Source: Candidatus Magasanikbacteria bacterium RIFCSPLOWO2_12_FULL_43_12 (GTDB lineage Bacteria > Patescibacteriota > Patescibacteriia > Magasanikbacterales > UBA922). From it: a stretch of 64,000 bases of DNA. A program made the position numbers and the translations under genes. Under the pieces are notes generated by a model that had not been told where the DNA came from, searched no databases, and was given only the letters and a program-made list of their open reading frames with translations. Below, in pieces: positions 5,873 through 60,570 of this stretch; position 1 is the first letter of the stretch, and every line of letters starts with the position of its first letter. The stretch covers positions 15,314 to 79,313 of the forward strand of contig MFQN01000003.1 in NCBI GenBank assembly GCA_001783065.1, read 5' to 3'.

Positions 5873-8149
5873 TTATTCTAAATGCACTCTCTCTCCCCAC
5901 TCCTCTACTTTCTCTTTCAGCGCCGGATATTTTCCAAAATCCATCCCCCGCGCTAAATCGCGCGCCAGTTTTATAAGCTGTCCGTCTTTCATGGTAGCCA
6001 ACCGAAAATTTTCCATTCCGCTTTGCGCCGTGCCATAGACTTCGCCGGGGCCGCGGTTTTCCAAATCATATTCCGCGACTTTGAAACCGCTGGTGTTTTG
6101 TTCAAAAAATTTCAAACGCTCCGCGACTTTCGGAGAATCGCTATCCGTGAATAAAAAACAATATGATTGATGCGTGCTCCGGCAAACCCGGCCGCGGAAT
6201 TGATGCAATTGCGCCAAACCAAATCTTTCCGCGCCCTCAATCATCATCACGCTGGCATTAGGCACATTCACGCCAACCTCAATTACTGAAGTTGAAACCA
6301 AGATATTGATTGCTTGCCCAGTAGTGATGCTGAAAGCATCTACTACTGTGGATCCATTGCTAAACTGCTCCATTGTTTCTTGTTTTTCAGTTGATTTTAA
6401 TTTCCCATGCAAAAAACCAATTTTCAAATCCGGAAAAATCGTCTTAGATAACTTTTCGTATTCTACCATCACCGTTTTTCTCTCGTCATTTTGAAATTTG
6501 AAATTTGAAATTTGAAATTTATTTGTATCTTGTATCTTAGTATTTTGGTCAGTCTGAATCAACGGACAAACTACAAACACTTGTCGTCCTTGCTTCACTT
6601 GTTCTCTAATAAACTGATACGCTTTATCCCGATTGCGCGGTTCAACCAATCGCGTTTTAACCGGCTTACGCCCTGGCGGCATCTCGTCAATGATTGACAA
6701 ATCCAAATCGCCAAACACCGTCAACGCGAACGACCGCGGAATCGGTGTCGCCGTCATGCTTAAAAAGTGCGGCGTGGTTATCCCCCTCTCCTTGCCAAGG
6801 AGAGGGGCGGGGGGTGAGGTGGTCTCGCCGAGAGAGAGGTCTCGCTCGCCAACCCGCGTTTTCCCTCTCAACACCTTTCTCTGCTCCACTCCAAACCTAT
6901 GCTGTTCATCCACGATAACCAAACCAAGATTTTTAAATTGCACATCTTCAGACAGCAACGCCTGCGTCCCGACAATAACGCCAACTTCCCCATCTTTTAT
7001 TTTATTCCGCAATTTACTTTTACTATTTATCTCCCTATCTCCATTTATCTCCCTTATCATTCGCTGGCTTCCGGTAAACAATCCCAAACTAACTTTATCT
7101 CCCAGCGCCTCCAACAAAGTCTCAAAGTGCTGTTTAGCCAATATCTCGGTCGGACACATCAGCGCGGTCTGAAACCCATTCAACGCCGCGTTATACATCG
7201 CCATGGCCGCGACAACTGTTTTGCCGGAACCAACGTCGCCTTCAAGCAAACGATTCATTGGCTCGTCTTTTTCCAAATCGCGCAAAATTTCCCAGGCCGC
7301 GATTTTTTGTTTTTTAGTTAATTTAAACGGTAAAGAATCAACAAATTTTTTCGTTTCTTTTTCTTTGAATTCAATTTTCGGCGCGACTGCTTTTTTGATT
7401 TCCTGCCTTATCATCTCGCCGCGCAACTGCAAAATAAAAAGCTCATCAAATTTCAACCGGCGTTCCGCGTGTTTCAATTCGTCCTGCGATTCCGGAAAAT
7501 GAATCGCTTTAATCGCTTCAACCAAACTCATAACATCCGCGCGGTCGCGCAAATTTTCCGGCAACCACTCTTTAATCTGGTTCGCGAGATTAATCACCTG
7601 ACTCAACAAAAACCGCAACTGCTTATTCGTAATCCCGCTCGTTAACGAATACATCGGCACAATTCTGGCAGTGTGAGTAGTGCGCGTCCCCTCTCCTCGT
7701 AGAGCCTGCACTGAGCTCGCCGAAGTGAGAGGGGCAGGGTGAGGTCTCTCGCGTTCGTACGCCGGCCCCACCATCTGCGCCCCAAAAAAATCACCGGTAA
7801 CTTTGCCGGAAAGATAAACCCTATCCCCCGCCTTCAAAATCTTCGCGATAAACGGCTGGCCAAACCACACCACGCGCAACTGACCGGTGTCATCAGCCAC
7901 CACCGCCTCGGTGATAATCGTCCGCTTGCGCGGACTGCGCTTGCTCGCTATCAATTCAACCTTGCCGCGCACGCTCACCTGCATTCCCTCGCGCAAATCT
8001 TTAATCGGAACGACTTGACTATAATCTTCATATCGGAAAGGAAAATAAAACAACAAATCTTTGGCTGTTTCAATACCAAGCTGGCGCAGTTTTTTCTCCA
8101 ACGTCTTGCCAACACGGTTTAAATTTGACACCGGTGTAGATAAATCCAT
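5873..8149 (-). CDS. recG: ATP-dependent DNA helicase RecG (with in-frame insertions)
   Basis: 758 aa; wedge domain, helicase motifs ...GDVGSGKTVVAAMAMY..., ...VIVDEQHRFGVEQR..., ...MTATPIPRS... It carries extra segments not expected in RecG: a KFQISNFKFQ tandem block and two GC-rich palindromic insertions. Confidence 0.9.
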   Translation of the reverse strand: MDLSTPVSNLNRVGKTLEKKLRQLGIETAKDLLFYFPFRYEDYSQVVPIKDLREGMQVSVRGKVELIASKRSPRKRTIITEAVVADDTGQLRVVWFGQPFIAKILKAGDRVYLSGKVTGDFFGAQMVGPAYERERPHPAPLTSASSVQALRGEGTRTTHTARIVPMYSLTSGITNKQLRFLLSQVINLANQIKEWLPENLRDRADVMSLVEAIKAIHFPESQDELKHAERRLKFDELFILQLRGEMIRQEIKKAVAPKIEFKEKETKKFVDSLPFKLTKKQKIAAWEILRDLEKDEPMNRLLEGDVGSGKTVVAAMAMYNAALNGFQTALMCPTEILAKQHFETLLEALGDKVSLGLFTGSQRMIREINGDREINSKSKLRNKIKDGEVGVIVGTQALLSEDVQFKNLGLVIVDEQHRFGVEQRKVLRGKTRVGERDLSLGETTSPPAPLLGKERGITTPHFLSMTATPIPRSFALTVFGDLDLSIIDEMPPGRKPVKTRLVEPRNRDKAYQFIREQVKQGRQVFVVCPLIQTDQNTKIQDTNKFQISNFKFQNDERKTVMVEYEKLSKTIFPDLKIGFLHGKLKSTEKQETMEQFSNGSTVVDAFSITTGQAINILVSTSVIEVGVNVPNASVMMIEGAERFGLAQLHQFRGRVCRSTHQSYCFLFTDSDSPKVAERLKFFEQNTSGFKVAEYDLENRGPGEVYGTAQSGMENFRLATMKDGQLIKLARDLARGMDFGKYPALKEKVEEWGERVHLE
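6489..6520. repeat. tandem heptamer (TTGAAAT)x4 plus (TGTATCT)x2 inside the recG coding sequence, in frame
   Basis: ttgaaatttgaaatttgaaatttgaaattt atttgtatcttgtatct; translates (minus) to ...NKFQISNFKFQND... within RecG. Confidence 0.8.
6781..6850. repeat. GC-rich palindromic element, copy 1 (in frame within recG)
   Basis: CCCCTCTCCTTG C CAAGGAGAGGGG, then CGGGGGGTGAGGTGGTCTCGCCGAGAGAGAGGTCTCGC; encodes ...TTSPPAPLLGKERGITTPH... in RecG. Confidence 0.8.
7683..7762. repeat. GC-rich palindromic element, copy 2 (in frame within recG)
   Basis: CCCCTCTCCTCG..(insert)..TGAGAGGGG then CAGGGTGAGGTCTCTCGCG; same arms and tail as copy 1. Confidence 0.75.
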
Positions 8150-20898: not shown

Positions 20899-20902
20899 AC
20901 GA

Positions 20903-20929
20903 AATATCCTCGGTAAAACCGAGGATATT
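20903..20929 (+). terminator. topA terminator hairpin AATATCCTCGG-TAAAA-CCGAGGATATT
   Basis: Perfect 11-bp inverted repeat 5 nt after the topA stop, followed by a T-rich tail. Confidence 0.6.
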
Positions 20930-21217
20930 TATAAAGCTGTTTGATGGGAGCAAGCTCCCAATACTGTATCCAAAAGGGCGTGTCTTAGAAATAAACGAGC
21001 CGAAGCCTGCAATACCCTAGAACACACCCTCCATGCTTGTCTGGATACAGATGGTTATCCGTTTTCAAAAACCGGATGATCATCTAAATCCACAATTTTT
21101 GTTTTAACAACGAATGACATACTATATCACACTTTGACTGTTTTGTCAAGCCCCACCTGTGGAAAACCACAATTTCTTGGCTAAAATAACACAAAAACAG
21201 CTGGGTAATATTAAAAA

Positions 21218-21312
21218 ATCCCCTCCCCTTTTAGGGGAGGGTTAGGGTGGGGTCTCTCGTCTTCACTCAACCACAACAACCCCCTCCTCGCCTCCCCCTA
21301 CAAGGGGGAGGG
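21218..21312. repeat. GC-rich palindromic element, copy 4 (two hairpins); the distal one supplies the C-terminal codons and stop of the VanW-domain gene
   Basis: CCCCTCCCCTTTTAGGGGAGGG TTAGGGTGGGGTCTCTCG ... CCTCCCCCTACAAGGGGGAGG; the latter encodes ...SLPLVGGGEEGVVVVE*. Confidence 0.75.
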
Positions 21313-23239
21313 ATGTGTCAACATTCACCTCATCTGCCTTCTTTTCTTCCACCCCCACCAAACAAATCTTCGGCAAGGCGCGGTAATGGCTTTCAAAAAT
21401 TGTCTCTTCTTTCTTTCGGCCATTGACGAACTCGCGAGTGTAGGTAAAAGAAGCGTCCGCGCCCTTGAACGCGTTCTGACACTCCTTCTCTCCTGGTTTT
21501 AATTTTGTTGTCTCAATTTCTTTCGGCTCACCATAAGGAATCCAACGCTTAACCACTGGTTTGGAATAATATCCCTTCCGGCCATCATTCGTCCCCCACA
21601 GATAAAACCTTAATTCACCGGTGGACGTATCCATTTCCGTTTGAATCAAAACATAATTCGCCGTGTCATTTCGAAAACGGAAATCCGGCTTGGGGTCATA
21701 AAACGTAGCGTCGGTGCCGGGATTCTTATTACTCGGATCATTATAATAACTCACGACTAATGAATGATTACGCCGTTCTACGATTTCCATGCCCGCGTTC
21801 ATCGCCATTCGGAACAGCGTGGTGCCGATCTGACACAACCCGCCGCCGATCTCCGGCTTAATCTCGTCGCCTTTAATCACTTTTTCAGGCAGATACCCGC
21901 CTTCCAAAGTAAAAGGCTGGGTATATTGTATGGCGGAAAAAATTTCTCCGGGTTTTATCAAAATGCCATTCAATTTTTTAACCGCGTTGGCGATATTTTT
22001 AATGCGATTAATCGGACTGCCGGAATAATTTGATATGCCGACGCCTAAAATTTCTTTTATTCCCAAATTATTGACGTCGCCGGTTTTGACATTGGGTTCA
22101 ACTTTTTCCACCACCGCGGCCACGGCAGTGGCCACGCCTTCATCGTGCCGCGTGCGCTCAATCAGCGCCTCGTTGATTGCCAAATAAGTTTTTTCCAAAT
22201 CTAATTTAATTCCGGGACGAGAGCCTTGAAATTCTTCTGTTTTGCCTTCAACACCAATTTTGAATTTAGCGTCTTGCGCTTCAACATTAACGCTCGGTTC
22301 TACTTTTTTGGTTAAAAAATCTACCACTGATTCTCGCTTCAAACCGAAAACAAAACCTTCGTCTGCCGCCTTTTGCGCCTCCACCCAATCGGCAATCTGA
22401 CCCAAACTAATCTGCCAATCATACTTCAAACCAGTATGCGGGTCTTGGTAACTCAAACTGACCGGGCCGTGAGCAAAAACGCTTGACAAACGATTTTCAA
22501 TGCTTTTCACGTCTATTTCAAAAATTTCCGGCTGTCCATTTTTAATGGAAATAGATACTTGTGCCAACTGTAAATTGGACCAAAGCCGATACACCTCGCT
22601 TACAGCGCCGTCATAATCAAAAACAACGCCCGCTTTTGCCGGCAAAATTTCATATTGTAAAGGATCTAATGATTTAATTTTAATTTCCGCGTTACGCGGC
22701 AAAGATTCATAAACGGAAATTTTGTTTTTAATCTTCTCTAATAACCGCGCCTCATCAACGCGCACCGTCTTCAATTCATATCTTGTTTCCCGCAGACCAG
22801 ACAGCAAAGCCGACACTCCCCATGATAGCAAATTGCGATCCTTGCCTATCAGATAATCCGCCTCTTTCTCAACTTCCATCTCTATCACATCCGGCAAAGC
22901 GCTGTCGCCAACCACCTCCGGATAAATCACCGTTGTTTCCTGTCGCCCATCCACTTCGTAACTAAACCACAGACCTTCATTGGCCATCTTGTCATTCATG
23001 TCTGACAAAAAAGCGACGACCTCGTTGCGGTCAAGGCCGGCCAAAGGCGCGTCGCCAATATATACTCCGGGCAAAACTTCACCACGAAAAGATGCTCCGT
23101 AAACAGCCAACGCGGACGCGCCAAGTATTATTATAATCACCGGCAGTCCCAAAACCAATAATAAAAATCTCCGCTTTGATTTCTCTATCGGTTTTTTTTC
23201 TGTTTTTTCTTCCAGAAAGTCCAACGACATATCATTCAT
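21263..23239 (-). CDS. VanW-domain protein with an N-terminal TM anchor
   Basis: C-terminal region ...GGGLCQIGTTLFRMAMNAGMEIVERRNHSLVVSYY... matches the VanW family signature. N-terminal TM helix LLLVLGLPVIIIILGASALAV. 658 aa. Confidence 0.75.
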   Translation of the reverse strand: MNDMSLDFLEEKTEKKPIEKSKRRFLLLVLGLPVIIIILGASALAVYGASFRGEVLPGVYIGDAPLAGLDRNEVVAFLSDMNDKMANEGLWFSYEVDGRQETTVIYPEVVGDSALPDVIEMEVEKEADYLIGKDRNLLSWGVSALLSGLRETRYELKTVRVDEARLLEKIKNKISVYESLPRNAEIKIKSLDPLQYEILPAKAGVVFDYDGAVSEVYRLWSNLQLAQVSISIKNGQPEIFEIDVKSIENRLSSVFAHGPVSLSYQDPHTGLKYDWQISLGQIADWVEAQKAADEGFVFGLKRESVVDFLTKKVEPSVNVEAQDAKFKIGVEGKTEEFQGSRPGIKLDLEKTYLAINEALIERTRHDEGVATAVAAVVEKVEPNVKTGDVNNLGIKEILGVGISNYSGSPINRIKNIANAVKKLNGILIKPGEIFSAIQYTQPFTLEGGYLPEKVIKGDEIKPEIGGGLCQIGTTLFRMAMNAGMEIVERRNHSLVVSYYNDPSNKNPGTDATFYDPKPDFRFRNDTANYVLIQTEMDTSTGELRFYLWGTNDGRKGYYSKPVVKRWIPYGEPKEIETTKLKPGEKECQNAFKGADASFTYTREFVNGRKKEETIFESHYRALPKICLVGVEEKKADEVNVDTSLPLVGGGEEGVVVVE

Positions 23240-30805: not shown

Positions 30806-31249
30806 TTACTCCTCCGGCCGATAAAACCCGCCGGTATTCACAATTAAAGCCAAATCCCTGATATGCTCGCTCCGCGCCGCTTTTCTCTCTTCTTTTTCTT
30901 CAATCTCCGGCGGTTCTTGCAAACGCAGATAATTTAATTCGTCTTTATCATAATTTTTCCGCCAAACACGCAAGCCCGGACGGCGGACGGTTTGCAATAA
31001 ATTTAAAATAAAATAATGAAATGTTTGACCGTTAATTTTTACAAAGGCCACGATTAGCGACCCGCCGCCAACCACCGCCAAAGTTGTGATGAATAAAGCG
31101 AAATCAGCGTATTTGAAAGCAAGGAAAACCAACAGTCCGGACGTGAGCAGAATTAAAAACTGCCGCACCGTTATCGGCCCGAAAATCTTGTCTTCCACGT
31201 CAATGAATTGCGGGACTACAAATTGTTGCATAGCCAATTTAACAATCAA
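30806..31249 (-). CDS. PrgI/TcpE-like (VirB3-analogous) small membrane protein
   Basis: 147 aa; ...QFVVPQFIDVEDKIFGPITVRQFLILLTSGLLVFLAF... plus a second TM helix. Both the position upstream of virB4 and the motif are characteristic of Gram-positive-type PrgI. Confidence 0.55.
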   Translation of the reverse strand: MIVKLAMQQFVVPQFIDVEDKIFGPITVRQFLILLTSGLLVFLAFKYADFALFITTLAVVGGGSLIVAFVKINGQTFHYFILNLLQTVRRPGLRVWRKNYDKDELNYLRLQEPPEIEEKEERKAARSEHIRDLALIVNTGGFYRPEE

Positions 31250-32502
31250 ATTGTCTTTCCAACCTCCGCTATTCTTTCAAACTCTTCAAATTTAATTCCA
31301 CTCTCTCCCACAACTTCCGTTAGTTTCCTCCTCTCATTCACCGCGCGCTTAATTAAATTCTGATAATCTTTATACACCGGGCTGCTAAACCACGCATCCA
31401 GCGCCTGAAGATATATTATAACAGATTCTTTCCTTAAAGCCGAGAACTTACCGCGCAAAACCTGAATTGAATCAATCCCGCCGGTCGCCAAACGGCGGAA
31501 ATCTGTCAAAGTCATTGTCGCGATCTCATCAATCGGCCCCAGGGAAACTTTCTCCGCCGGTTCAACTTTCGGCGGCACAACATCTTGAACCAACGGTTTG
31601 GTGTTAATCCCCAACACCTCCCCTGCCCTCCTCCGAGGAGGGAGCTTGTTAGCCACACCATCGGATCCGCCTGCCGGCGATACAGAGAAAGTCTGTGAGT
31701 GTATCCTAACACCTCCATCGCCCTCCTCCGAGGAGGGAATTTTTGAGCTCCCATCTCGGAGAGGGGTAGGCCTTCGAGGCTCTAAGGAGCCCTCAGGCTC
31801 TCGAAGAGGGGGTGTGTTCGCCAAATGCCAAATTTTTTTTATCGCCGCGATCACCGCAGCTGTTTGTTCTTCAGAAAATCCCAACCCGCCTTCCGCCTCG
31901 TTTCTTTGCAAATACCCGCGCATTTGCTCTTCATTCCTCACTCCCTTTACAAAAGACACGACCAACGAATTCAATCTCCCTCTCATTTCATCTTTAACCG
32001 GAAATCTGATTTCTTTTACAAACAAATCATACAAATCACCTCTCTTGTCAGGCAAAACATTTACTGCTTTAATTTTCATCGCTTCATCAGCAGAATCTTC
32101 CAACAACGACTTATTATCCTCTCTCGTCCACGCTTTCACCTCACTATTTTTCTGTTTCTTGTTATCTGTCTCCTGCATTATATCGTCAACTCTTTGGGTT
32201 TTGTTAATTGTGTTTTGTGTTTTGCTCTTCACTGTTCGCACATACTTCGCTTCATCCACAAAAATATCCTTCACCGGCGCCGCCGTCGCTACCGCTTCCT
32301 CGCCAATCTTCGCCGGCAGATTTGACCCCAGCTCTCGGACTTCAGCTTTCGGATTTATGATTTTAGGTTTAGCAATCTCAACACTCGCCGATTGAGTTTT
32401 GTTAATTGTGTTTTGTGTTCTGTACACGCCAAACTCATCCCAACTCATCCTTACGGACGTGCCGTCGGATTTTTTGACGAGGATTGTGGGTTGATTGGGC
32501 AT
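31246..32502 (-). CDS. hypothetical protein (418 aa) carrying in-frame GC-rich palindromic insertions
   Basis: Starts MPNQPTILVKKSDG (shared 5' module). Internal TQNTINKTQ duplication. The segment ...VANKLPPRRRAGEVLG... is encoded by CCTCCTCCGAGGAGGG palindromes. Confidence 0.55.
   Translation of the reverse strand: MPNQPTILVKKSDGTSVRMSWDEFGVYRTQNTINKTQSASVEIAKPKIINPKAEVRELGSNLPAKIGEEAVATAAPVKDIFVDEAKYVRTVKSKTQNTINKTQRVDDIMQETDNKKQKNSEVKAWTREDNKSLLEDSADEAMKIKAVNVLPDKRGDLYDLFVKEIRFPVKDEMRGRLNSLVVSFVKGVRNEEQMRGYLQRNEAEGGLGFSEEQTAAVIAAIKKIWHLANTPPLREPEGSLEPRRPTPLRDGSSKIPSSEEGDGGVRIHSQTFSVSPAGGSDGVANKLPPRRRAGEVLGINTKPLVQDVVPPKVEPAEKVSLGPIDEIATMTLTDFRRLATGGIDSIQVLRGKFSALRKESVIIYLQALDAWFSSPVYKDYQNLIKRAVNERRKLTEVVGESGIKFEEFERIAEVGKTI
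31601..31812. repeat. GC-rich palindromic element cluster, copy 5 (CCCTCCTCCGAGGAGGG x2, CCCATCTCGGAGAGGGG, GGCTCTCGAAGAGGGGG), in frame within the 31246..32502 gene
   Basis: ctcccctgccctcctccgaggagggag ... cgccctcctccgaggagggaa ... cccatctcggagagggg ... ggctctcgaagagggggtg. Confidence 0.7.
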
Positions 32503-39200: not shown

Positions 39201-40826
39201 GAAATAGGCTTTGCCGTCTTTATAACGCGGTCCGTGCATTGCTTTTTCTTTTGCCTCTGCCACTCCTTCGGCGTCTCTATGCTTACTCCTTTCCTCATAC
39301 GCTTCTAACTCACCATGTCTGCTGCGAGCGCGATTGCCCCATTGCCCGCTGGATTGCATTTTGCCTAACAAATCTTCTGCATATTCCGCTGTATGTTCCG
39401 CCGCTTTCAGGTGTTTTTTCCTCCTAGCTGTTCCACCAGCCAAAACTCCCACATTCCAACCAAAAAGTTTACGCATACCCCTGCCCATATAATCTTCTTT
39501 AGCCAAGTCACCCTTACCTCCAGCCCCAGTGTACCAGGCATCCTTGGTTCTCGCCCATTTCATCTTTGCGTGTTCGGTCCAAAACTCTCCTCCCAAAGGC
39601 ATGTGCCACAGCGCGCCTTTCCCAGCCAACTTTACTCCGCGTCCTGTCGCCCCAGCCAACCACCTCCCCGCGGCATAACCGGTCGCGATGGTGGCGACTT
39701 TGCCGAAGAAATCTTTAGCCTTGGACGCGACACTGCCGCCGGCAACGTTGAGTTTCTGCACTTCCTGCAAGCCGACGAATAACAATACTATGGCCACCAA
39801 AAAATTCGCCATGTTTTCCCAAGTGGTAACCGCGGATAAAGTTAAAGCGCCGACTGAATCAATGCTCCCTGCCTGCAACATTTGGTCGGTAATGCCGATG
39901 TCGCTACCGAGCGTACCGGAGCCGGCAGTGGCAAAAGCCAGCCACATGAAAAACGAAATTGTTGGCGCGAGCACGACATAATTGGAAAATTCCTTCCACC
40001 ATTCGCCATAGCGATTCGTGGTTTGCGGCAAAGCGATGAATAAAAACGCCAACGGAGATAAAATAATCAAAACCCACAGCACTGTCATCCGCAAAAGCAT
40101 CATTATCGCGTAAGCGCCCATTACCAGCATGGCAAGCAAAGCGAAAAGCATGGCCACAACAGAAGCCACCAGTGTCCGGCCCAACAAATTAAAACTTTCT
40201 CCACCAACGCCAACATCATTTTTCCCGGTGGTGATAGCGTAAATCTTTTCAAAATGAAACATGTTGATCAGATTGCCGCCGGCTGTCGCGGAAATCGCGC
40301 TGGCAAAAGTCAGAGTGAAAACATGCGCCGCGTCAATGAAAAGCTGGCAAATCAAATTACTGAAATTAACAAACACCGCGCTTAAAATAAGTTTGACTAG
40401 AGTCTTATTCCATTGATATTGTTCAATGCCGAGAATGGTGCCAATGGCGATCACCAGCAAAATCACCACAAAAAACATATTGACCACATCGCGTACCATC
40501 AGCCAGCCAAGCTTGACTACCGGAGAATCAATATAGTTGTTGTATTGAGCTAACGCGATAAAAAAGCGCAGGAAAAAAATGCTCATTTTTATAAAAAACT
40601 CACCCAAACCCAGGGCCAGATTCGTAAACATGTCCATTATGCCGCCGGAAATAACCCCCATATCGCCCAAAGCTGGGTTTGCCATTGAAGTGAGCGGGAA
40701 CATCACCGCGCCAATCACCAAAATTACAAACAAAAAACTCAAGCCTGTTTTGCCTTTCCTAAACACAAGCAAACACAAAAATCGTTTCAGGATAAGAAAA
40801 AATTTTCGCTTTAATAAGCTCTTCAT
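36243..40826 (-). CDS. giant VirB6/TrbL-like polytopic membrane protein with a ~1000-aa charged coiled-coil/low-complexity C-terminal extension
   Basis: 1527 aa. The first ~450 aa contain at least 8 hydrophobic helices (FLFVILVIGAVMF, LVAIVLLFVGL, etc.). The remainder is Glu/Lys/Ala-rich and heptad-like (...EEKAAKKLEDERQKAVNAVEDAKRTIEEKKAQIATDLEK...). Confidence 0.65.
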   Translation of the reverse strand: MKSLLKRKFFLILKRFLCLLVFRKGKTGLSFLFVILVIGAVMFPLTSMANPALGDMGVISGGIMDMFTNLALGLGEFFIKMSIFFLRFFIALAQYNNYIDSPVVKLGWLMVRDVVNMFFVVILLVIAIGTILGIEQYQWNKTLVKLILSAVFVNFSNLICQLFIDAAHVFTLTFASAISATAGGNLINMFHFEKIYAITTGKNDVGVGGESFNLLGRTLVASVVAMLFALLAMLVMGAYAIMMLLRMTVLWVLIILSPLAFLFIALPQTTNRYGEWWKEFSNYVVLAPTISFFMWLAFATAGSGTLGSDIGITDQMLQAGSIDSVGALTLSAVTTWENMANFLVAIVLLFVGLQEVQKLNVAGGSVASKAKDFFGKVATIATGYAAGRWLAGATGRGVKLAGKGALWHMPLGGEFWTEHAKMKWARTKDAWYTGAGGKGDLAKEDYMGRGMRKLFGWNVGVLAGGTARRKKHLKAAEHTAEYAEDLLGKMQSSGQWGNRARSRHGELEAYEERSKHRDAEGVAEAKEKAMHGPRYKDGKAYFNPDTGEVSTLAGEAARFAIRQQRWEEEGKALIGSERKKIIERARPDMEKAVKDSDEAREGRKSSDLVAAEAEEAGAKNILRTAEAKIQVVVDAKLKTDTDVLLAQTNLNKANEEIKFAEKGLKILKKSGEYTEMIEDKEEKNKAEETLEKISEKLKDTEGVLTDKDKTQLGKMKVAEEKKIEDLDVKIQGNSKGLLEEKAAKKLEDERQKAVNAVEDAKRTIEEKKAQIATDLEKTERVEDGSRTIAEQRDVYKAATEKTIKASDAWDKVVADAGSTLPDADEKEIKNYRDSDSKEKPPISKELKEIMDQRDRDTEVSKRLEEIEEDLYSGFLIGKDGEPVMANGKEVERKNSNVAIAYLQAAQKAAAVGAGVEASETEAKKIILGLESYGSLFSAEVASKMGAEASKAFIDGIKDKKMGDLFKKGAKELKDALEGAQAKGIKLSLEALSLTNVGAKMAQAQMIAEYNKDITGANKAEAADHATDIFTLERYNFKTPASAFKDWVKKQTERLQGVEREQSVVNAMGTLGQFFKLQKQGKEITTDQKAQMMAHVKHLTSNGWMDDLLARVAKMATSKKTLTGEKREEAEALEEIFINKLHWDPKDNRSGADRTAQVQKLIGMGGDRKQMQAEEAVLWRMESTDEGYGEANKQLAEIAHSNYANIVGPGADKLSRMRVAKEAGMITDEQIEKAGEGDVRATAAVDASIEQLMAYTEKFIEPVAGMADGAKMAAATFMKSMDEFTEAFEMLADFKNLAMNTGHIDDGGHTYYDMNEGMLRGNLGHKGKEFVLGEWRKLGLDQRLSRLKTHSIGQMQEDFGTIDYTASEECDDAIRETFAGLSNQREFAKVDGRNKDHIAGMAAGETIRQDENGRTKIGDDDSAYFRSTFKHIIDKDQRKKEVEKRLRGNYAAFLQNNPAALFGSLAERSGLSFDDGMKGNLNMNICGENINNVEELVAWVNQDSSYRFNPERIRRSLARASEGKRRGE

Positions 40827-40857
40827 GCTGGTTGTTTGAAGACAGCGGTATTATACC

Positions 40858-40965
40858 ATATTTTATGCGCGAAGAGGAGGGGGTGGGGATAACGGCGAGC
40901 AGGATGCAGGATGCACGCAGCATGACACATTTTTGAAAAACAAAAAATCCTCGTTATTATTACGG
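40858..40965. repeat. upstream leader element with GGATGC/GGATAC heptad repeats (gggataacggcgagcaggatgcaggatgcacgcagcatgac...gaaaaacaaaaaa), 5' of the VirB6-like gene
   Basis: Shares ACGGCG.ACAG.ATGCAGGAT.CA and the A-rich tail with 56880-56945 and 58685-58760. Confidence 0.55.
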
Positions 40966-40985
40966 GAATTTTTTTTCTTAAAGTT

Positions 40986-41195
40986 TCACTCTAACCCAGC
41001 CGCGCGTAAAATCGCTTTTAATGTGCCTATCGGCAAATTCTTTGAATGATACGGAACCACAGCTCTTTTCTCTGGTAACGGTTGGTAAAAAACATAATGA
41101 CTGCCTGAAACATGATCCAAAATAAAACCATTTTCTTGCAATAATTTTATTACTTGTTTTGAAGTCAGCCGTGGAGTTTTAGGCATAAGCCACAT
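40986..41195 (-). CDS. hicA: HicA-family toxin
   Basis: 69 aa; ...LTSKQVIKLLQENGFILDHVSGSHYVFY... is the YcfA/HicA signature. Confidence 0.8.
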   Translation of the reverse strand: MWLMPKTPRLTSKQVIKLLQENGFILDHVSGSHYVFYQPLPEKRAVVPYHSKNLPIGTLKAILRAAGLE

Positions 41196-41421
41196 CCAAT
41201 GAGGTAATAAAACTATGTTCGTCGCTTACGACTTCGCCACCATGTTTGCGAACACTCTTAAGATACGAATCAATCGCATCAATCGCCATTTCTTTTGCTT
41301 CAGTCAAAGTGCGGCCGAAAGTAATACAGCCAGCTAAGGCCGGCACAATAACCGTAAAACCGCCCTCAATTTCAGGACGAAAAATTAAATTGTAATGCAA
41401 ATTTTTTTTCATATTTTTCAC
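41179..41421 (-). CDS. hicB: HicB-family antitoxin
   Basis: 80 aa; ...YNLIFRPEIEGGFTVIVPALAGCITFGRTLTEAKEMAIDAI... RNase-H-like HicB fold pattern; overlaps hicA by 17 nt. Confidence 0.8.
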   Translation of the reverse strand: MKNMKKNLHYNLIFRPEIEGGFTVIVPALAGCITFGRTLTEAKEMAIDAIDSYLKSVRKHGGEVVSDEHSFITSLDVAYA

Positions 41422-41479
41422 AATATTATTAACACATATACACTACAGAATTTAATCAAAAAAGTCAATACACACCTTA

Positions 41480-41550
41480 TGCGTCTTATTACACTCCCCC
41501 GTACACCACCACCCAGCTATTCAACACCTGAACGCGAGGAATGATAAAAA
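41480..41550. repeat. ~70-nt duplicated fragment of the 60694..64000 gene (homologous to 60871-60945), intergenic
   Basis: cttatgcgtcttattacactcccccgtacaccaccacccagctattcaacacctgaacgcgagg versus cttatacgtcttatcacactctcccgtacaccacccccaattatccaacacctgaacacgagg. Confidence 0.7.
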
Positions 41551-41672
41551 TAGTATACTAATACTCACTGATGATAATTTGAATAACATTCATATTTTCT
41601 TTTTCTAACAAAAAACCATCTCAATATTAAGACAGTTTTTTGTCTGAAAGAATTTTGTTTGCATAAAATCTT

Positions 41673-41987
41673 TCATTTTAATTTTATCCCCGTTCTTTTA
41701 ATTTCAAAAACCATCGGGTCAGAATCATTTTGAAAATCGCGAACACTAAAGACATGCGCCTCTAATCGCCTGTCAACTGCCATGCCTATTTTTGAATACA
41801 GCGCCAATTTCCTCCAAAAATTAATTTTGCTGTCATCAACAACAACAGCGACGTCTATGTCGCTCCACTTGCCCGCCCGCCCGGAAACACAAGAACCAAA
41901 CAAATAGGCCGCCTTGACTGTCAATCCGTTGTCTTCCAACATTTCCGCGTAATTTTTTACGATCTTTTTTACTTTAGCTTTTGACAT
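41673..41987 (-). CDS. nucleotidyltransferase (MNT-type antitoxin)
   Basis: ...AYLFGSCVSGRAGKWSDIDVAVVVDD... (G-S-x10-D-x-D); 104 aa; overlaps the HEPN partner. Confidence 0.8.
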   Translation of the reverse strand: MSKAKVKKIVKNYAEMLEDNGLTVKAAYLFGSCVSGRAGKWSDIDVAVVVDDSKINFWRKLALYSKIGMAVDRRLEAHVFSVRDFQNDSDPMVFEIKRTGIKLK

Positions 41988-42358
41988 AACATCTCATATA
42001 AGGCGACAATCCGTTTATAATACCCTTCCGTAAAATCTCTCGTGCATACTTGATAAAACTGCAACTTGAAATCGGGATAGCGCGTCGCGATATTAAAATT
42101 GTTCACCTCCTTTAGGAATAATATGTATTCCTCCGACAAATTTAATTTAGCCAAGTCATGCAAACGGACTAGGTCATGAATGCGCGGAGACTGTTTCTTC
42201 GTGATTTTCACGACCAGCGCTTTCAAAATCTTTTCTAAAACTATGTGTCCGAAAAATAAACAGTCTGAATAACGTTTCAACTTTTTTAAACCAAGCATCG
42301 TGTCAAAATCATGCTCAGCTGTCTTTTTCCAATACATGACAACTTCTTTGTAATCCAT
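41969..42358 (-). CDS. HEPN-domain protein (toxin partner)
   Basis: 129 aa all-helical with an Rx4-6H-type motif (...RIHDLVRLHD...); directly upstream of and overlapping the NTase gene. Confidence 0.7.
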   Translation of the reverse strand: MDYKEVVMYWKKTAEHDFDTMLGLKKLKRYSDCLFFGHIVLEKILKALVVKITKKQSPRIHDLVRLHDLAKLNLSEEYILFLKEVNNFNIATRYPDFKLQFYQVCTRDFTEGYYKRIVALYEMLCQKLK

Positions 42359-42366
42359 ATGTTTAC

Positions 42367-42460
42367 ACTATACCAACAAACAACCGTTGTGTCAAAAAAT
42401 CCTGCGCCCTATCCTGTAGCTCGCGCCCACCCTACTTATCCACACCACACCCTTGATAAA
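42367..42460. promoter_or_regulatory. conserved bidirectional promoter module (CTATACCAACAAACAACCGTTGTGTCAAAAAATCC ... CTTATCCACACCNCACCCTTGAYAAAAC), copy 1
   Basis: Both sub-blocks are repeated at 59426-59461 and 59806-59835; they contain a TTGACA/TTGATA -35-like hexamer. Confidence 0.45.
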
Positions 42461-42565
42461 ACTGCGAAAATCGGTCCAAAAAAACCATCAACATGATACA
42501 GACGCTTGCTAAAATCTCAAATATAACATACCATCCCTATAGCTCTTTACAGCGGAAGTTCCGCG

Positions 42566-43090
42566 ATGGATTTTAGAAACTGTCACTTTATGCCAAAAAT
42601 CACTTTGAAAAAAATAAAACCCGCGGATAAAAACCATTTTGCCAAATGGTGGCGGGACAAAACACTGCTTAAACTGACGAGCGGCATTTTAAAACCAATA
42701 TCTGATAAAGAAATAACGAAATATTTTTTTGCTATATTACAAAACAAAAATGACTATCACTTCCTAATCCGCGCGGACAAAAAAGTCATCGGCCACGTCT
42801 CTTTAGTTAAAAGGAATGGCAATCGGTATGAAACTCAAATAATTATTGGCGAAAAAAAATATTGGAATAAAGGCTATGGCGCGAAAGCTATCAAAATCCT
42901 CATGAATAAAGCAAAACGATTGGGTATTCCAAAAATATTTCTTGAAGTCAGACCGACTAACCTGCGGGCTATCAAGGCCTATGAAAAATGCGGCTTTATT
43001 AAATCCGGCGTTAAAAAATATCCAAAAAATAAATTCATGCCGGAAATTTTGAAGATGGAATTTGAAAACACATTGCAAAAAACAAAATAG
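42566..43090 (+). CDS. GNAT-family N-acetyltransferase
   Basis: ...IGHVSLVKRNGNRYETQIIIGEKKYWNKGYGAKAIKILMNKAKRLG...FLEVRPTNLRAIKAYEKCGF... (acetyl-CoA-binding Q/R-x-x-G-x-G/A motif); 174 aa. Confidence 0.85.
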   Translation: MDFRNCHFMPKITLKKIKPADKNHFAKWWRDKTLLKLTSGILKPISDKEITKYFFAILQNKNDYHFLIRADKKVIGHVSLVKRNGNRYETQIIIGEKKYWNKGYGAKAIKILMNKAKRLGIPKIFLEVRPTNLRAIKAYEKCGFIKSGVKKYPKNKFMPEILKMEFENTLQKTK

Positions 43091-43099
43091 TCCTTCTCG

Positions 43100-43400
43100 C
43101 GGTGAACCAGCAATGTTTCAAATTGTGTTTTGCAACCGGCAAAATAAACTGGATCCACACTCATAAACCTCCCAATCTCACTATTGTAATACCTCTGTCC
43201 GGCATAATATAACCCGCTCGCATCAAGCTCATACCCGGTAAACTTCTTATCATTCTCGTAAGCTGTGTATTTATTATCCAACCGGACCGAACCAAACGGG
43301 TAGTAATCCAATACTTCAACCACAAAGCCGTTTTTGTCTGTTTCAACGCTTGAACCGGAGAGGTGGTCGATATGATGGTAGATTAGTTTACCCTATCCGC
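43100..43400 (-). pseudogene. truncated RHS C-terminal-core fragment (orphan remnant)
   Basis: ...VEVLDYYPFGSVRLDNKYTAYENDKKFTGYELDASGLYYAGQRYYNSEIGRFMSVDP is about 90% identical to 48800-49120. Homology ends where it runs into the GNAT gene; no toxin tip or start codon. Confidence 0.6.
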
Positions 43401-43444
43401 TAATGCCTGAGCATGACGATGGCGGGCAAACATCGTCAATTGTA

Positions 43445-44020
43445 TTAAAAACCACCCATCGAACCACTTGACAGTTTTTTCTTTTGTTTATTGAATTCAT
43501 CAAGATCAATAATTTCTTTTTCATAAAGCCAATTGAGTGATCTTAATTTTTCGTCTTGTTCAAATGAATCGCTAACATATTTATTTAAGAAAAAAGATCT
43601 TCTCTTCTCAAAAATTTCTTTAATAAAATTATCCAGTGTTTCTTTATCCGGTCTATTATTAAAGAAAACTAGATTTGCGCTATTCAATCCTTGAATTATT
43701 CTAAAGTCTTTTTTATTAAATAAAAAAATTGCTAAACTTATGATAGCCATACCAATCCAAAATAAAATTGCCCACTTGTCATCAGTTGAATAATAAATTT
43801 GGACAATACCTAATATAATTGAAACAATTAAAAAAACAAAAAAAACAACGAGCCAGCCTCCCTTTTTATTTGTAGAAATAATTTCTTTGTTTAAAATTTC
43901 TTCAAATGAAAGTGCGCATTCAAAATAATTCCACAAGTACCTATCAGAAACCTTCACGCCATTATCTAAAATTTCAAACTTTTTGAAATTTAGACCGTAT
44001 CTTTGATTTAAAGTATTCAT
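43445..44020 (-). CDS. hypothetical membrane protein (2 TM) with a SHOCT-like C-terminal tail
   Basis: 191 aa; WLVVFFVFLIVSIILGIVQIY and ILFWIGMAIISLAIFLF; C-terminus ...LNWLYEKEIIDLDEFNKQKKKL. Confidence 0.5.
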   Translation of the reverse strand: MNTLNQRYGLNFKKFEILDNGVKVSDRYLWNYFECALSFEEILNKEIISTNKKGGWLVVFFVFLIVSIILGIVQIYYSTDDKWAILFWIGMAIISLAIFLFNKKDFRIIQGLNSANLVFFNNRPDKETLDNFIKEIFEKRRSFFLNKYVSDSFEQDEKLRSLNWLYEKEIIDLDEFNKQKKKLSSGSMGGF

Positions 44021-44089
44021 AATAATTTAATTGGCTTTTTTATAATTTCAATTATCAATACCATTTTAAAAAAATCCGGCGGGGAAAAA

Positions 44090-44965
44090 TTACCAACAAA
44101 TTACCGCCTCCCCACCAATCTTTTCTTTTATAAAATTCTTTGCTTCTGTAAAACTACCAATTTCATCTATCAAACCGTTTTCTAATGCCATCTCGCCTGG
44201 CATCGAAGATCCATCAGCCAGCGACTTCACTTTTTCAACATCCAAATTACGACTTGTGGCGATGCTTTTCACAAGATCATCGTGAAGTATCTGTATATCA
44301 CGCATAATTAATTGTTTTTCCTCTTCTGTCAGTTGCTTGTTCGGATTAGCGGAATCTTTGTATTTTCCAGAACTTAGTATATTATACTTTACTCCGTCTT
44401 TTTCGTTCTTTTTTACATTATCGAGATACGACATGGTTACACCAATACTTCCTACATCCGAATTTTTTAATGCAAATATTGTGTCAGCCCCGGTTGCCAC
44501 ATAATATGCCGCTGACAGGCCTTGAGATCTAATCAATGTTATAATCGGTTTATCCAAATGTTTCATTGCTTCCACAATTTCTTCTGCAGCCGCAGTATAC
44601 CCGCCGAACGAATCTATTTCTAATAATACCGCCTTGATATTCTCATGCTTTTTTGCTTCATCCAAATTAAATATAATATTTTCTGAGGCGGTTGAATCTG
44701 AATAAAATTCTTTACTCTTGTCATCAATAGTATTTGGTATATATGTCACTAGATTACCGCGTAAAACAACACCAGCCACGTTACAATCTCCGGCATAACG
44801 CTCCGTACTCTGTACTGATGTGTTGAGTTTAGAAAAATCTATTTTTGTGTAAAAAAAATACGCCACACTAATTACAAAAATTATAAAACTCAATCCTATG
44901 CCTGCCGCCACAAACATAAAAATTCTTTTAATATCATTATTGTTCCCCTGCTTTATTTCTTCCAT
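44090..44965 (-). CDS. sppA: signal peptide peptidase SppA (S49 family, ClpP fold)
   Basis: ...KAVLLEIDSFGGYTAAAEEIVEAMKHL.KPIITLIRSQGLSAAYYVATGADTIFA...; N-terminal TM helix; 291 aa. Confidence 0.75.
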   Translation of the reverse strand: MEEIKQGNNNDIKRIFMFVAAGIGLSFIIFVISVAYFFYTKIDFSKLNTSVQSTERYAGDCNVAGVVLRGNLVTYIPNTIDDKSKEFYSDSTASENIIFNLDEAKKHENIKAVLLEIDSFGGYTAAAEEIVEAMKHLDKPIITLIRSQGLSAAYYVATGADTIFALKNSDVGSIGVTMSYLDNVKKNEKDGVKYNILSSGKYKDSANPNKQLTEEEKQLIMRDIQILHDDLVKSIATSRNLDVEKVKSLADGSSMPGEMALENGLIDEIGSFTEAKNFIKEKIGGEAVICW

Positions 44966-44966
44966 A

Positions 44967-45854
44967 TCATTGTGCGTTAGACTTTTTATTTAGTTTCTTA
45001 GTTTTAATCTCAGTGATTTTTCTTTGTACAGAATCCAATGGCCTTACCAAGTAAATAAGGAAAACAAACTTTAAAATTAACGGCCAAATCATAAGAGGCA
45101 TCCTAAATAATATTAGCGTAACCAGATTTTCTAAAATAAGAATAATCAATATGGCAATAGCAACTTCTAAAGCAAGTTTATTTTTCTTTTTAATTAATTG
45201 TCCTAATGCAAAAAAAATGAAAGCTAATATTATTATTATAATCAAATAAATCTTAGCAAGCAAACCTTCGGATATCTTATTTAAATAAACAATTACAGAA
45301 AAGACACTGGATACAGCCAAAATAAATGCTACATTCGAAGCGACATTCCATATTTTGTCGGAATCAGATAGCACACAATTTTTTGAATCAGCTTGTAAAT
45401 TTAAGTACGCCGACTGTCCAGACACACTATCATTAATATTTCTTTGTACCCGTATAAATGGAAACATTTTACCAACCCGAAAAGCGTAAACATACAAGAC
45501 AGTGAATAGTGGTATAATTAATAATAACCAAAACACATAACCAAAAATTACCGACCATTGAGGTAAATCAGCAGCGGCTACTTTTGGTTGAATTGCGACA
45601 AAAAAATACACCGTATTCCATACTATGGCTACAAAAAAGAAAAACTTCCAAAATATCTTCTCCAATATTTTTTTACTCCAACAAAAACCATACAAACCAA
45701 CTAATGCTGGAATTAATACCACTAAATCAATAAATTTCCAAATACTATCAAATCCTTTGGAATAATCCATGATTGATAGTATCATATAAACCCAAAACAG
45801 TATCTTCCAACCGATATTTTTTGGTTTAATTAGATTCTGTTGAACTTCGTCCAT
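44967..45854 (-). CDS. hypothetical polytopic membrane protein
   Basis: 295 aa, at least 7 hydrophobic helices; 2-nt gap to sppA. Confidence 0.55.
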   Translation of the reverse strand: MDEVQQNLIKPKNIGWKILFWVYMILSIMDYSKGFDSIWKFIDLVVLIPALVGLYGFCWSKKILEKIFWKFFFFVAIVWNTVYFFVAIQPKVAAADLPQWSVIFGYVFWLLLIIPLFTVLYVYAFRVGKMFPFIRVQRNINDSVSGQSAYLNLQADSKNCVLSDSDKIWNVASNVAFILAVSSVFSVIVYLNKISEGLLAKIYLIIIIILAFIFFALGQLIKKKNKLALEVAIAILIILILENLVTLILFRMPLMIWPLILKFVFLIYLVRPLDSVQRKITEIKTKKLNKKSNAQ

Positions 45855-45909
45855 ATTTAAATTAATTTAATTGGTCGTGTCCACATCCTTTCTCAGCGCC
45901 AAAATTGAA

Positions 45910-46275
45910 TTATTGTGAATTAAAATCCTGCTTGATTTTATTAAGCCATTCTCTACCATTTTGATTCAGTAATTTTTCACCAACTTCAAGACCTTTTTTA
46001 GAACCCACTAAAACTTCAAAAACACCAACTTGAGGCAAATTCTGAACGTTTGGATCTTCAGAATCCTGCATTTCGTTTATTAAATCAAAAGATTTTTTGA
46101 TTACCCTATCACCCTGAGACTCAGATTTAATTTTTCCTAACAGAAAGTCACCAAATTTGTCAAAAACTATTGTGGGTTCACTTAGCTCAAATTCATCAAA
46201 CTGGTGATAAGATTTAAGCTCTGGAACCCTATTTAGTAATTCTTGCACTGCATTGTCGTGGGTTATTTTTGTCAT
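45910..46275 (-). CDS. putative immunity protein for orphan RHS toxin cassette 3
   Basis: 121-aa acidic protein immediately downstream (2-nt gap) of the orphan C-terminal toxin ORF. Confidence 0.45.
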   Translation of the reverse strand: MTKITHDNAVQELLNRVPELKSYHQFDEFELSEPTIVFDKFGDFLLGKIKSESQGDRVIKKSFDLINEMQDSEDPNVQNLPQVGVFEVLVGSKKGLEVGEKLLNQNGREWLNKIKQDFNSQ

Positions 46276-46276
46276 A

Positions 46277-47360: not shown

Positions 47361-47367
47361 CTCGTTT

Positions 47368-47688
47368 TTAATGTTCCATCCCAATCCAATCAGTTAAAAT
47401 ACCATAAACTTCTGTAGCTAAATCTTTATATTTTTCAACAAAACCGGCAGTCTCCTCGTCAAATGTTTCGATGAAAACTTTGTGGACGTTTCTGATAAAT
47501 TCGTCAACATTAAAACTTAGATTAAACATTTCCACACTCTTTTTTATTTCGAGATCATATTCATCATGATTGTTTGCATCTGCGTAGTATATCCCAACAG
47601 GATTATACTTGTTAAACACTTTCCTCAACTTTTCAAGAATGACAGAACCTTCGGCCAACTCGATCAATCTACCTTTGTCAACCATCAT
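47368..47688 (-). CDS. hypothetical small acidic protein (possible orphan immunity protein)
   Basis: 106 aa; located between two toxin cassettes; no recognisable motif. Confidence 0.4.
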   Translation of the reverse strand: MMVDKGRLIELAEGSVILEKLRKVFNKYNPVGIYYADANNHDEYDLEIKKSVEMFNLSFNVDEFIRNVHKVFIETFDEETAGFVEKYKDLATEVYGILTDWIGMEH

Positions 47689-47819
47689 AAGCCGCCACCC
47701 CCCTTCTTTTTATTCCATTCTAATGCCATACATTAGATAGTTTAATTTTAAAAAACAACAGGACTATCCTTTTCTCTTGTAACAGCATCGGTTAAATCAT
47801 TCATTTTTAGGGGTTTAAT

Positions 47820-49173: not shown

Positions 49174-49247
49174 CCTGTTCGGGTAGATTGAAACTTTACC
49201 CTGCGCCCCTGTGGCGCCAGGGTTGGTGTTTTCGGTTTAAATTTTAA

Positions 49248-60006: not shown

Positions 60007-60062
60007 TAGTTTTTCTTTCGTCCCTCCCCCTCGTAGGGGGAGGCAGGAGGGGGTCTCAACGA
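60007..60062. repeat. GC-rich palindromic element, copy 6 (intergenic)
   Basis: CCCTCCCCCTCGTAGGGGGAGG CAGGAGGGGGTCTCAACGAG. Confidence 0.75.
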
Positions 60063-60159: not shown

Positions 60160-60570
60160 ATGGTGCGTTTCAACTGGCTGCTCGCCGCTCTTGCGTGCGC
60201 CATTCTCGGCGCAACTCTCCTCGCGTCCTGCGATTCCGAGGGCGTTATCGCGCCCGACCCCACCTGTCAGGACCCGGCGTCCTGTCCTTACTCGCTCAAC
60301 TCGAGCAAGGATATCGTGTCCTCCACGGACACGGAACAGGAGGGCTCCCAGCCCGACATCGAGCAACCCGCTCCCCCGCCCGCCCCGGACTACACAGGGG
60401 AACCTTGTCCCAACATTGGGTGTGTACTCACCAAGGCACCCCCAGACGAACCTAACGAATGGGACTGTGGCGAACCGCCTGACTTCCCGCCTGACTCCAT
60501 GATCATCACAGGCATTCCCACCGCCTGGGTGCCGGCCAAATGCGGCATCCCCGAGCCAACCAACGAGTAG
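60160..60570 (+). CDS. small Pro/Cys-rich lipoprotein encoded in a GC-rich (>60%) islet
   Basis: Strong SD (AAAGGAGGTGCGCC ATG). Signal peptide plus lipobox MVRFNWLLAALACAILGATLLASC. 136 aa. The antisense ORF 60106..60582 was rejected. Confidence 0.6.
   Translation: MVRFNWLLAALACAILGATLLASCDSEGVIAPDPTCQDPASCPYSLNSSKDIVSSTDTEQEGSQPDIEQPAPPPAPDYTGEPCPNIGCVLTKAPPDEPNEWDCGEPPDFPPDSMIITGIPTAWVPAKCGIPEPTNE

Follow-up and report, generated by a model that had tools for sequence, protein, structure and literature searches.

Triplex motifs and related bacterial repeats

Short, GC-rich repeats with three arms have been described in Escherichia coli and cyanobacteria under successive names, first BoxC, later PIT elements and later TM_ECO, for one and the same architecture (Hoyne et al. 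2000, as cited in PMC4666352). The TM_ECO pattern, CCCTCNCCC-N3-6-GGGNGAGGG-N3-GGGNGAGGG, belongs to class II (Holder et al. 2015, PMC4666352), and its definition comprises a third arm compatible with antiparallel pairing, 6 to 15 triplets and at most 1 mismatch. The second loop is TTA (type A) or CCG (type B), and inverted pairs always associate one A with one B. An oligonucleotide of the E. coli motif adopts a triplex in vitro, as observed by CD and NMR; a stable triplex was unseen in vivo. The E. coli motifs are associated with local genome instability, and no link with a mobile-element gene was found for them (PMC4666352). Promoter or terminator activity is absent from the E. coli PIT elements according to Holder et al., who cite Maher's group on this point (PMC4666352).

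Two other groups of repeats offer points of comparison. REP, BIME and REPIN sequences are GC-rich palindromes of 20-40 nt, often arranged as inverted doublets, usually located 3' of genes and sometimes inside repair genes (PMC3733652). HPG1 and HPG2 are apparently the same E. coli elements as TM_ECO, approached from the G-quadruplex (G4) side (PMC5100583).

The locus analyzed here is located in a 64-kb stretch of DNA, hereafter the window, from a genome of Candidatus Magasanikbacteria (Patescibacteria/CPR), whereas the host of TM_ECO is E. coli. The element family is already known, and the locus reveals no new kind of system. We consider it likely that the locus is an inverted pair of intrastrand triplex motifs of the BoxC/PIT/TM type, inserted around the native stop codon of a VanW-family gene.

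Two inverted 33-nt units at the end of a VanW-family gene

The VanW-family gene (21263..23239, minus strand) encodes PG_binding_4 and VanW domains and is followed by a convergent topA. The ORF cited by the first-pass annotation is real, with a C-terminus reading ...SLPLVGGGEEGVVVVE*. An identical protein is called on 10 contigs (JGI/Logan/ENA) as well as on two further NCBI assemblies, and therefore its end is not an assembly artefact. No indel was found at the locus in the two other assemblies, which are 99.95-99.99% identical. Both the VanW protein and the RecG of the window are identical to proteins of Rifle aquifer MAGs.

The two hairpins that had been noticed at the 3' end of this gene are located where they were said to be: CCTCCCCCTACAAGGGGGAGG at 21291-21311, within the 3' end of the ORF, and CCCTCCCCTTTTAGGGGAGGG followed by GGGTGGGGTCTCTCG at 21221-21259, 3 nt past the stop codon (21263-21265). 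Two features had been overlooked: the hairpin within the ORF has its own tail, CGA-GGAGGGGGT, and the tail is by nature a third strand. The stretch 21221-21311 is therefore formed of two inverted copies of one GC-rich, 33-nt unit, arranged tail to tail. Each unit opens with a C-rich arm, continues with a G-rich arm, both of them followed by a loop of 3 nt, and closes with a G-rich tail that mirrors the G-rich arm.

Unit A (21221..21253, plus strand) is a class II purine-motif intrastrand triplex motif with a 9-bp stem and 9 triplets, located 3' of the VanW stop and antisense to VanW. Its Y arm CCCTCCCCT (21221-21229) is followed by loop 1, TTT, its R arm AGGGGAGGG (21233-21241) by loop 2, TTA, and the unit is terminated by the reverse-Hoogsteen arm GGGTGGGGT (21245-21253). 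What had been described as the GGGTGGGGTCTCTCG tail is thus this third arm together with a lineage-specific CTCTCG. This 3' extension (21254..21259, plus strand) occurs as CTCTCG, CTCAACGAG or CTCGACGAG in Magasanikbacteria copies; it is absent from unit B, as seen in the window and L006 copies compared, and is not conserved in the 136 matches listed from other phyla.

Unit B (21279..21311, minus strand) belongs to the same motif class, also with a 9-bp stem and 9 triplets, and is inserted in sense orientation inside VanW, where its 33 nt amount to 11 codons. It assembles a Y arm CCTCCCCCT (21311-21303), loop 1 TGT, an R arm AGGGGGAGG (21299-21291), loop 2 CGA and the reverse-Hoogsteen arm GGAGGGGGT (21287-21279). 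A 19-nt spacer (21260..21278, minus strand), encoding Val-Val-Val-Glu and the TGA stop (21265-21263), lies between the two units and is most likely native gene sequence.

In both units, 9 Watson-Crick pairs are accompanied by 9/9 purine-motif triplets (G.GC, T.AT and A.AT). The structure-defined edge of each unit falls exactly at the last triplet, which places the edge of unit B at GGGGGT. The third arm repeats the purine arm in mirror order, T or A standing opposite A, so that one strand of DNA could fold into a 9-bp hairpin whose major groove is filled by the third arm, lying antiparallel on the purine arm. Units A and B are triplex-compatible, i.e., a purine-motif triplex with 9 triplets could form on a single strand of each. 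The loops of paired copies fall into type I (TTA or TTG) and type II (CA or CGA), both present in the window as well as in locus L006: the window associates a TTA-loop unit A with a CGA-loop unit B, and the L006 pair a TTG-loop with a CA-loop unit. A search of the whole window against Rfam at gathering score returned tRNAs only, and over 20900-21500, with E values up to 10, it returned only sub-threshold miRNA noise.

A dispersed family with a covarying third arm

Unit A shares 81-83% identity over 40-42 nt with BoxC/TM_ECO copies of E. coli. These copies occur in 4147 of 5426 E. coli genomes and occupy unannotated intergenic positions, the yhjE-yhjG spacer being one example. The resemblance extends to the class II order, the 9-nt stems, the 3-nt loops, the G.GC, T.AT and A.AT triplets, the TTA second loop of unit A, the inverted pairs mixing two loop types and the local sequence instability around the motifs. 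Compared to the published TM_ECO pattern, unit A agrees at 8/9 triplet positions, its end triplet being T-A.T and not C-G.G, while unit B is shifted by one position; both are variants, and neither matches the pattern exactly. Unlike those of TM_ECO, the stems here are variants of asymmetric sequence, CCCTCCCCT and CCTCCCCCT, with T-A.T as the closing triplet. The core of the TM_ECO pattern, CTCTCC/GAGAGG/GTGAGG, is harbored by two further copies of the window, located in recG and starting at 6783 and 7688.

Other differences with the E. coli elements concern loops and layout. The type B loop is CCG in E. coli but C(G)A here. The pair is tail to tail with a 19-nt spacer, whereas the yhjE-yhjG pair, the one E. 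coli locus compared, is head to head with ~60 nt in between. E. coli K-12 copies are reported to be always intergenic, whereas 4/6 copies of the window are located in ORFs, in frame; location is not part of the structural definition.

The spread of the family was assessed by a scan of one genome per GTDB species, in which the variable stem and tail positions were left free, and which returned at least 120 loci. Those listed belong to Cyanobacteria, Bacteroidota, Chloroflexota, Proteobacteria, Planctomycetota, Acidobacteriota, Deinococcus, Verrucomicrobiota, CPR and others. The search pattern did not impose covariation between stem and tail, yet covariation is observed in the 135 distinct matches listed: CCTCCCC stems are accompanied by GGGTGGGGT tails in 30/38 cases, CCTCCCCC stems by GGAGGGGGT tails in 17/22, and CCTCTCC stems by GGGTGAGGT tails in 63/75. 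Over the same matches, mirror triplets average 8.6 on stems of 9.4 bp, against 6.9 under a direct-repeat model. At least 7 mirror triplets are kept by all window copies and by all 136 genome matches listed. Comparison across phyla, in which the tail covaries with the stem in mirror fashion, strongly supports the conservation of a three-armed, triplex-compatible architecture and not of a plain hairpin or G-quadruplex. On sequence grounds, the units belong to the BoxC/PIT/TM_ECO family, which is dispersed in this genome, in many phyla and in phages. Beyond the published picture, the genomes of CPR bacteria and of bona fide phages also carry the motifs.

It could be argued that the relevant fold is a switch between G-quadruplex, hairpin and duplex rather than a triplex. 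A canonical G4 motif with four tracts, GGGG-A-GGG-TTA-GGG-T-GGGG, is present in unit A, which in this respect fits HPG1/HPG2. Kaplan et al. 2016 (PMC5100583) report CD evidence of a hairpin and of a G4 form for E. coli elements that appear to be the same, their 16 + 7 intergenic HPG1/HPG2 members equalling the 23 TM_ECO copies. The rule of four G3 tracts holds, however, for 1/6 window copies, namely unit A, and for 49/136 genome matches listed; unit B and the four other window copies lack four G3 tracts and fail the canonical test (four tracts of G3 or more, loops of 1-7 nt). A G4-based switch also leaves unexplained the conserved C-rich arm and the covariation of stem and tail, and we regard it as improbable. 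As the mirror arm is kept by all copies and the four G3 tracts by a minority, the three-armed design is therefore the conserved feature.

A second proposal would make the units REP/REPIN palindromes, i.e., inverted doublets mobilized by a RAYT (an HUH tyrosine transposase), with a G-rich tail that is incidental. The doublet does fold into one long hairpin, as a REPIN would, several copies have GTAG in loop 1 (TTGTAG in unit B, TCGTAG in c3), and the REPs reported in genes, notably those of replication and repair (PMC3733652), parallel the copies in recG and in a UvrA-like gene (locus L095). But REP families carry GTAG where the stem begins, at its 5' foot, whereas here it is confined to the loop, and neither unit A (TTTTAG) nor the copy at 6783 possesses it. 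The mirror covariation of the tail with the stem across phyla is not predicted by such an origin, and no link with mobile-element genes had been found in E. coli (PMC4666352). The units hence differ from REP, BIME and REPIN sequences by the lack of GTAG/CGTC at the stem foot, the lack of a known RAYT and the covarying third arm, and a REP origin has little chance of being correct. Membership of the REP family was also assessed through its GTAG/CGTC tag, which is not found at the palindrome end; GTAG occurs only within loop 1 of some copies.

Origin of the C-terminus and stop codon of VanW

In the VanW protein of the window, the conserved core runs up to ...HYRALPKICLVGVEE, beyond which the tail is acidic and hypervariable. 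Among VanW homologues, the common core ends ...HYRxLPxICLVGVEE, and the acidic tail beyond it ranges from 12 to 60 residues with a median of 33. It had been claimed that the palindromic element supplies both the C-terminal codons and the stop codon of the gene. The first half of this claim applies in part: of the final 16 residues, unit B contributes 11, (S)LPLVGGGEEG. The second half is not supported: the last four codons and the stop, GTT GTG GTT GAG TGA, are located at 21277-21263, in the spacer and outside both 33-nt units.

Unit B runs from the third base of a Ser codon to the second of a Val codon, (S)LPLVGGGEEG(V). As it is exactly 33 nt (11 codons) long, the native frame downstream is kept, and its removal leaves a VanW ending ...DTSVVVE*, with a tail of 18 residues that lies inside the 12-60 range of the homologues. 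Among 119 VanW homologues without the element, 57 end with Glu and 28 with hydrophobic-hydrophobic-x-Glu; the VVVVE* of the window VanW is the commonest native type of terminus in this set. The VVVE* ending matches the commonest native VanW ending, so the element is most likely not the supplier of the stop. The stop codon and the VVVE ending are, most likely, the gene's own.

The comparison of C-termini between orthologues had been suggested at the outset as a check. The nearest element-free orthologues, L003 (86% identical) and L006 (83%), possess GAA or GAG followed by a stop at the same column; the tail of the nearest one, L003, aligns unconvincingly. The tail without unit B would be ~13 codons shorter than that of the nearest orthologues, so extra deletions have to be assumed. 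A homology between unit B and the L003 tail was considered and rejected: MAFFT aligns the two without gaps, yet identity is ~36% by eye in a G-rich sequence.

In an alternative reading, the whole pair, spacer included, would have been inserted as one unit, replacing the native VanW end and supplying the last 16 codons and the stop. The window is merely 23 nt longer than the orthologues over the stretch although the pair measures 91 nt, so native sequence was lost somewhere, as such a replacement would entail. The motifs often occur as A+B inverted pairs (E. coli; L006 101-208; L128), and in two relatives, L128 and L129, the element does give the final Pro-Ser-Pro codons and the stop. This alternative is nevertheless opposed by the spacers of three pairs, which share nothing beyond the short CTC..CG extension; by the spacer itself, whose in-frame hydrophobic run, Glu and stop are improbable for 19 unrelated nucleotides; and by the edge of unit B, which falls exactly at GGGGGT after exactly 11 codons. 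Insertion of the pair as one piece is therefore judged unlikely, and insertion of the two units around a native stop is preferred.

That the family remodels gene termini, as was also claimed, is borne out by the two relatives. In loci L128 (1954-2062) and L129 (2115-2143), a type III pair is located at the end of VanW orthologues 73-77% identical to the VanW of the window. In these proteins (P0004/P0003), an independent motif provides Pro-Ser-Pro and a TGA stop: the Y arm encodes Pro-Ser-Pro, and the TGA is composed of the last T of the Y arm and the GA of the loop. The second motif of the L128/L129 pair harbors a 12-nt hairpin in loop 2 and is followed by TTTT. With one pair in the window and an independent one in L128/L129, the 3' end of VanW has thus served as a landing site more than once. 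The 11 residues added in the window are probably neutral in the disordered VanW tail.

A putative terminator downstream of VanW

Rho-independent terminators resemble unit A in that, on the VanW strand, its GC-rich stem precedes a U run. They differ in that the hairpin here possesses an additional arm and belongs to a dispersed repeat, most copies of which have no U run. On this strand, the terminator scan gives unit A 9 pairs, 7 of them GC, and the tail GATTTTTTAA; beyond the hairpin the sequence reads GAUUUUUU (ATTTTTT). A U6 tract directly follows the hairpin (21213..21218, minus strand) and makes a terminator-like site for VanW. Unit A thus has the two components of an intrinsic terminator, a GC-rich stem-loop and a U tract directly next to it. 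The whole B:A pair is also predicted to fold as one long hairpin (-59.4 kcal/mol, z -4.6) that ends just before the U tract.

The terminator of the orthologues is a small hairpin (GCCCCTGTAGAGGGG + TTTTT; GCCCCTGTAGAGGGGTTTTT) that precedes a conserved downstream promoter block. Its position corresponds in the window to ACCCAGCTGTTTTTGTG (21190..21206, minus strand), where, according to the alignment, the small hairpin is absent and the T run alone is left. Unit A is probably the VanW terminator, replacing the hairpin of the orthologues. Set against the negative assays of E. coli PIT elements, this role is plausible and its case lies entirely in the flanking U tract; the elements used in those assays need not have had U tracts.

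Could both hairpins be ordinary terminators that arose in place, outside any dispersed family? Unit A with its U tract scores as a terminator and is located between convergent genes. Unit B, on the other hand, is inside an ORF, the copies in recG and in ORF 31246..32502 have no T run, and the occurrence of the same 33-nt architecture in E. coli, cyanobacteria, phages and other groups contradicts an origin in place, which is hardly credible.

Copies within genes

The arms CCTCCCC-N2-8-GGGGAGG match 3 times in the window against 0.00 expected. A structure-based scan for full motifs, i.e., a hairpin and a mirror tail, identified 6 in the 64-kb window and 0 in each of 30 shuffles. As the first-pass annotation had stated, the element family is found inside genes and not just at their ends: 4/6 copies are in ORFs, two of them in recG and one in ORF 31246..32502. 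Both recG copies are of type III, antisense and in frame; the first (6783..6820, plus strand) is TM_ECO-like (CCTCTCC/GGAGAGG/GGTGAGG) and encodes TSPPAPLLGKERG, and the second (7688..7743, plus strand) has a 31-nt loop 1. The copy of ORF 31246..32502 (31616..31642, minus strand) is short, with a 7-bp stem and 7 triplets, and encodes LPPRRRAGEV in frame and in sense orientation. The sixth copy (60023..60054, plus strand) is an intergenic type II motif near-identical to unit B; further near-identical type II copies of unit B are found at L130 10438-10406 and L006 101-157.

RecG orthologues illustrate how the same positions are used. The two loop positions are empty in many Magasanikbacteria; other orthologues fill the same two loops with motif-encoded peptides such as PLLQGEG, SPLRGER, PSPYKGEG and TPLLGKERG. 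The 82% identical relative has motifs at the same two sites of recG, but of different subtypes. Elsewhere, the motif occurs in frame in a UvrA-like gene (L095), a type ISP restriction enzyme, a T9SS-secreted protein and a Nomurabacteria Dus gene. In-frame copies in recG, VanW, UvrA-like, type ISP restriction enzyme, Dus and phage terminase genes go beyond what has been published on the family. They also have a bearing on annotation, as they account for a recurrent class of odd peptides (PLLxGEG, PSPxxGEG and LPLVGGG) and for unusual gene ends among proteins derived from metagenomes.

Among the genome matches listed, a length divisible by 3 is not enriched in copies spanned by an ORF (20/50 vs 32/76). 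The exact 33 nt of unit B may therefore reflect selection and not a property of the mobile unit.

Rickettsia palindromic elements (RPEs) are alike in being short palindromic repeats that add peptides in frame. RPEs are inserted in frame into protein-coding genes, where they provide peptide segments at tolerated surface positions. They are ~100-150 bp long, AT-richer, not known outside Rickettsia and devoid of a mirror-repeat third arm.

Some motifs contain nested inserts (window 7697-7727, L006 119-143, L128 2021-2032, L130 at recG site 2). One type is 23-26 nt long, is located in loop 1 and has a small palindrome of its own (GAGCTC / GAGCGCTC); the other, CTGCC(C)GAAGGCAG, forms a mini-hairpin within loop 2. 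As these inserts recur at different loci, they may represent either a further small element or variant forms of the motif itself. Tandem arrays also contain the triplex motif: three exact 78-nt units occur at L022 62-252, in a Bacteroidales MAG, and partial tandem duplications in L048 and L102. The three L022 matches, with their 78-nt spacing, were considered as a CRISPR array; as whole 78-nt units repeat, this is a tandem repeat.

Insertion, spread and phages

By the preferred reading, two units would have entered the sole permissive DNA around the VanW stop. Unit B would have been inserted as an exact 11-codon, in-frame piece into the acidic tail, four codons before the native stop, and unit A a few bases past that stop. 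In the VanW mRNA a triplex would be impossible, but unit A alone could pair as a Watson-Crick hairpin, or B and A together as one long hairpin, with U6 next to it. Either hairpin would now act as the intrinsic terminator, instead of the small hairpin that the orthologues have 20-30 nt further on.

The pre-insertion VanW allele was not found: the nearest element-free orthologue is 86% identical, no homologue was found between 86% and 100% identity, and the 90% cluster of VanW consists of start-codon variants, apart from a single protein truncated within the hairpin. The separate insertion of B and A is hence something that we infer and did not see.

Spread would proceed by copy-and-insert mobility or by recombination at structure-stalled forks. 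The near-identical copies within genomes and the repeated strikes on the same protein loops argue for one or the other. The motif is frequent in viral contigs of IMG/VR, among the matches listed; phage contigs thus carry copies, whereas the E. coli report says that there is no phage link.

One phage example is IMG/VR contig 3300048592_001291 (L138), a 7.3-kb Mu-like head module encoding the terminase large subunit, a Mu portal, Mu F and a virion morphogenesis protein. Between 1894 and 7238, it harbors five triplex motifs on the coding strand that are near-identical, loops included, and 3/5 are inside ORFs, that of the terminase among them. Such near-identity within one genome, loops included, points to recent copying.

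As a broader and tentative proposal, to which we give somewhat less than an even chance, the triplex motifs may be mobile DNA that routinely colonizes coding sequence in frame, in bacteria and phages, with an RPE-like remodelling of proteins and gene ends driven by a triplex-forming repeat. If so, the motifs of gene-dense CPR genomes would strike the same tolerant loops and gene ends repeatedly, as at the two recG loops and at the VanW tail in two independent lineages, and they would add or replace peptides, create stop codons (L128) and donate terminators.

Neighboring features

The VanW-topA interval harbors a near-consensus promoter, TTGACA-17-TATAGT with TG, at 21149..21121, within 20899-21150 (minus strand). 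The ~215-nt block that follows the promoter is almost invariant in five Magasanikbacteria loci, contains predicted helices and ends at a bidirectional terminator (20930..20902). The block is found at L003 12070-12366, L006 9640-9932, L007 2760-3117 and L128 2140-2520, with an extra ~94 nt in its first hairpin loop in L007 and L128. No Rfam match to the conserved block was found. It is probably an undescribed small RNA gene, with a sparse covariation of 1 compensatory pair. A small ORF at the start of this non-coding block was rejected, as its frame, by eye, is not kept in L007.

Several RecG homologues (P0131, P0163, P0165, P0175, P0198 and P0200) are 877-903 residues long and have an embedded PF13366 domain (GxxExxY / PDDEXK_3). 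These long RecGs originate from Magasanikbacteria/Patescibacteria, and one of them is named 'GxxExxY protein'. The presence of PF13366 in RecG suggests an inserted nuclease-like module.

Genes resembling bAvd / 23S-rRNA-IVP and a GIY-YIG gene are located at L003 403-759 and 5365-5640 and at L006 15326-15685. The gene calls of L001/L002, two loci nearly identical to the window, have no counterpart at these positions, which suggests that small mobile or DGR-related insertions differ between close relatives. A DGR target-site hairpin was considered for the motif and rejected: although relatives have bAvd genes, the motif is dispersed and VanW is not targeted by a DGR.

Two similar AT-rich hairpins, AAAACAAAAAACTACT..AGTAGTTTTTTGTCTT and AAGACAAAAAACTACC..GGTAGTTTTTTGTTTT, are located at 58745-58783 and 60629-60669. 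The 1.9 kb between them contain a lipoprotein-like ORF of higher GC content (60160..60570) as well as the intergenic motif at 60023. The hairpins could serve as bidirectional terminators or mark the two ends of an inserted segment. The GC content is 0.32-0.40 at 40000-50000 against ~0.45 elsewhere in the window, and this stretch may be a foreign or specialized region.
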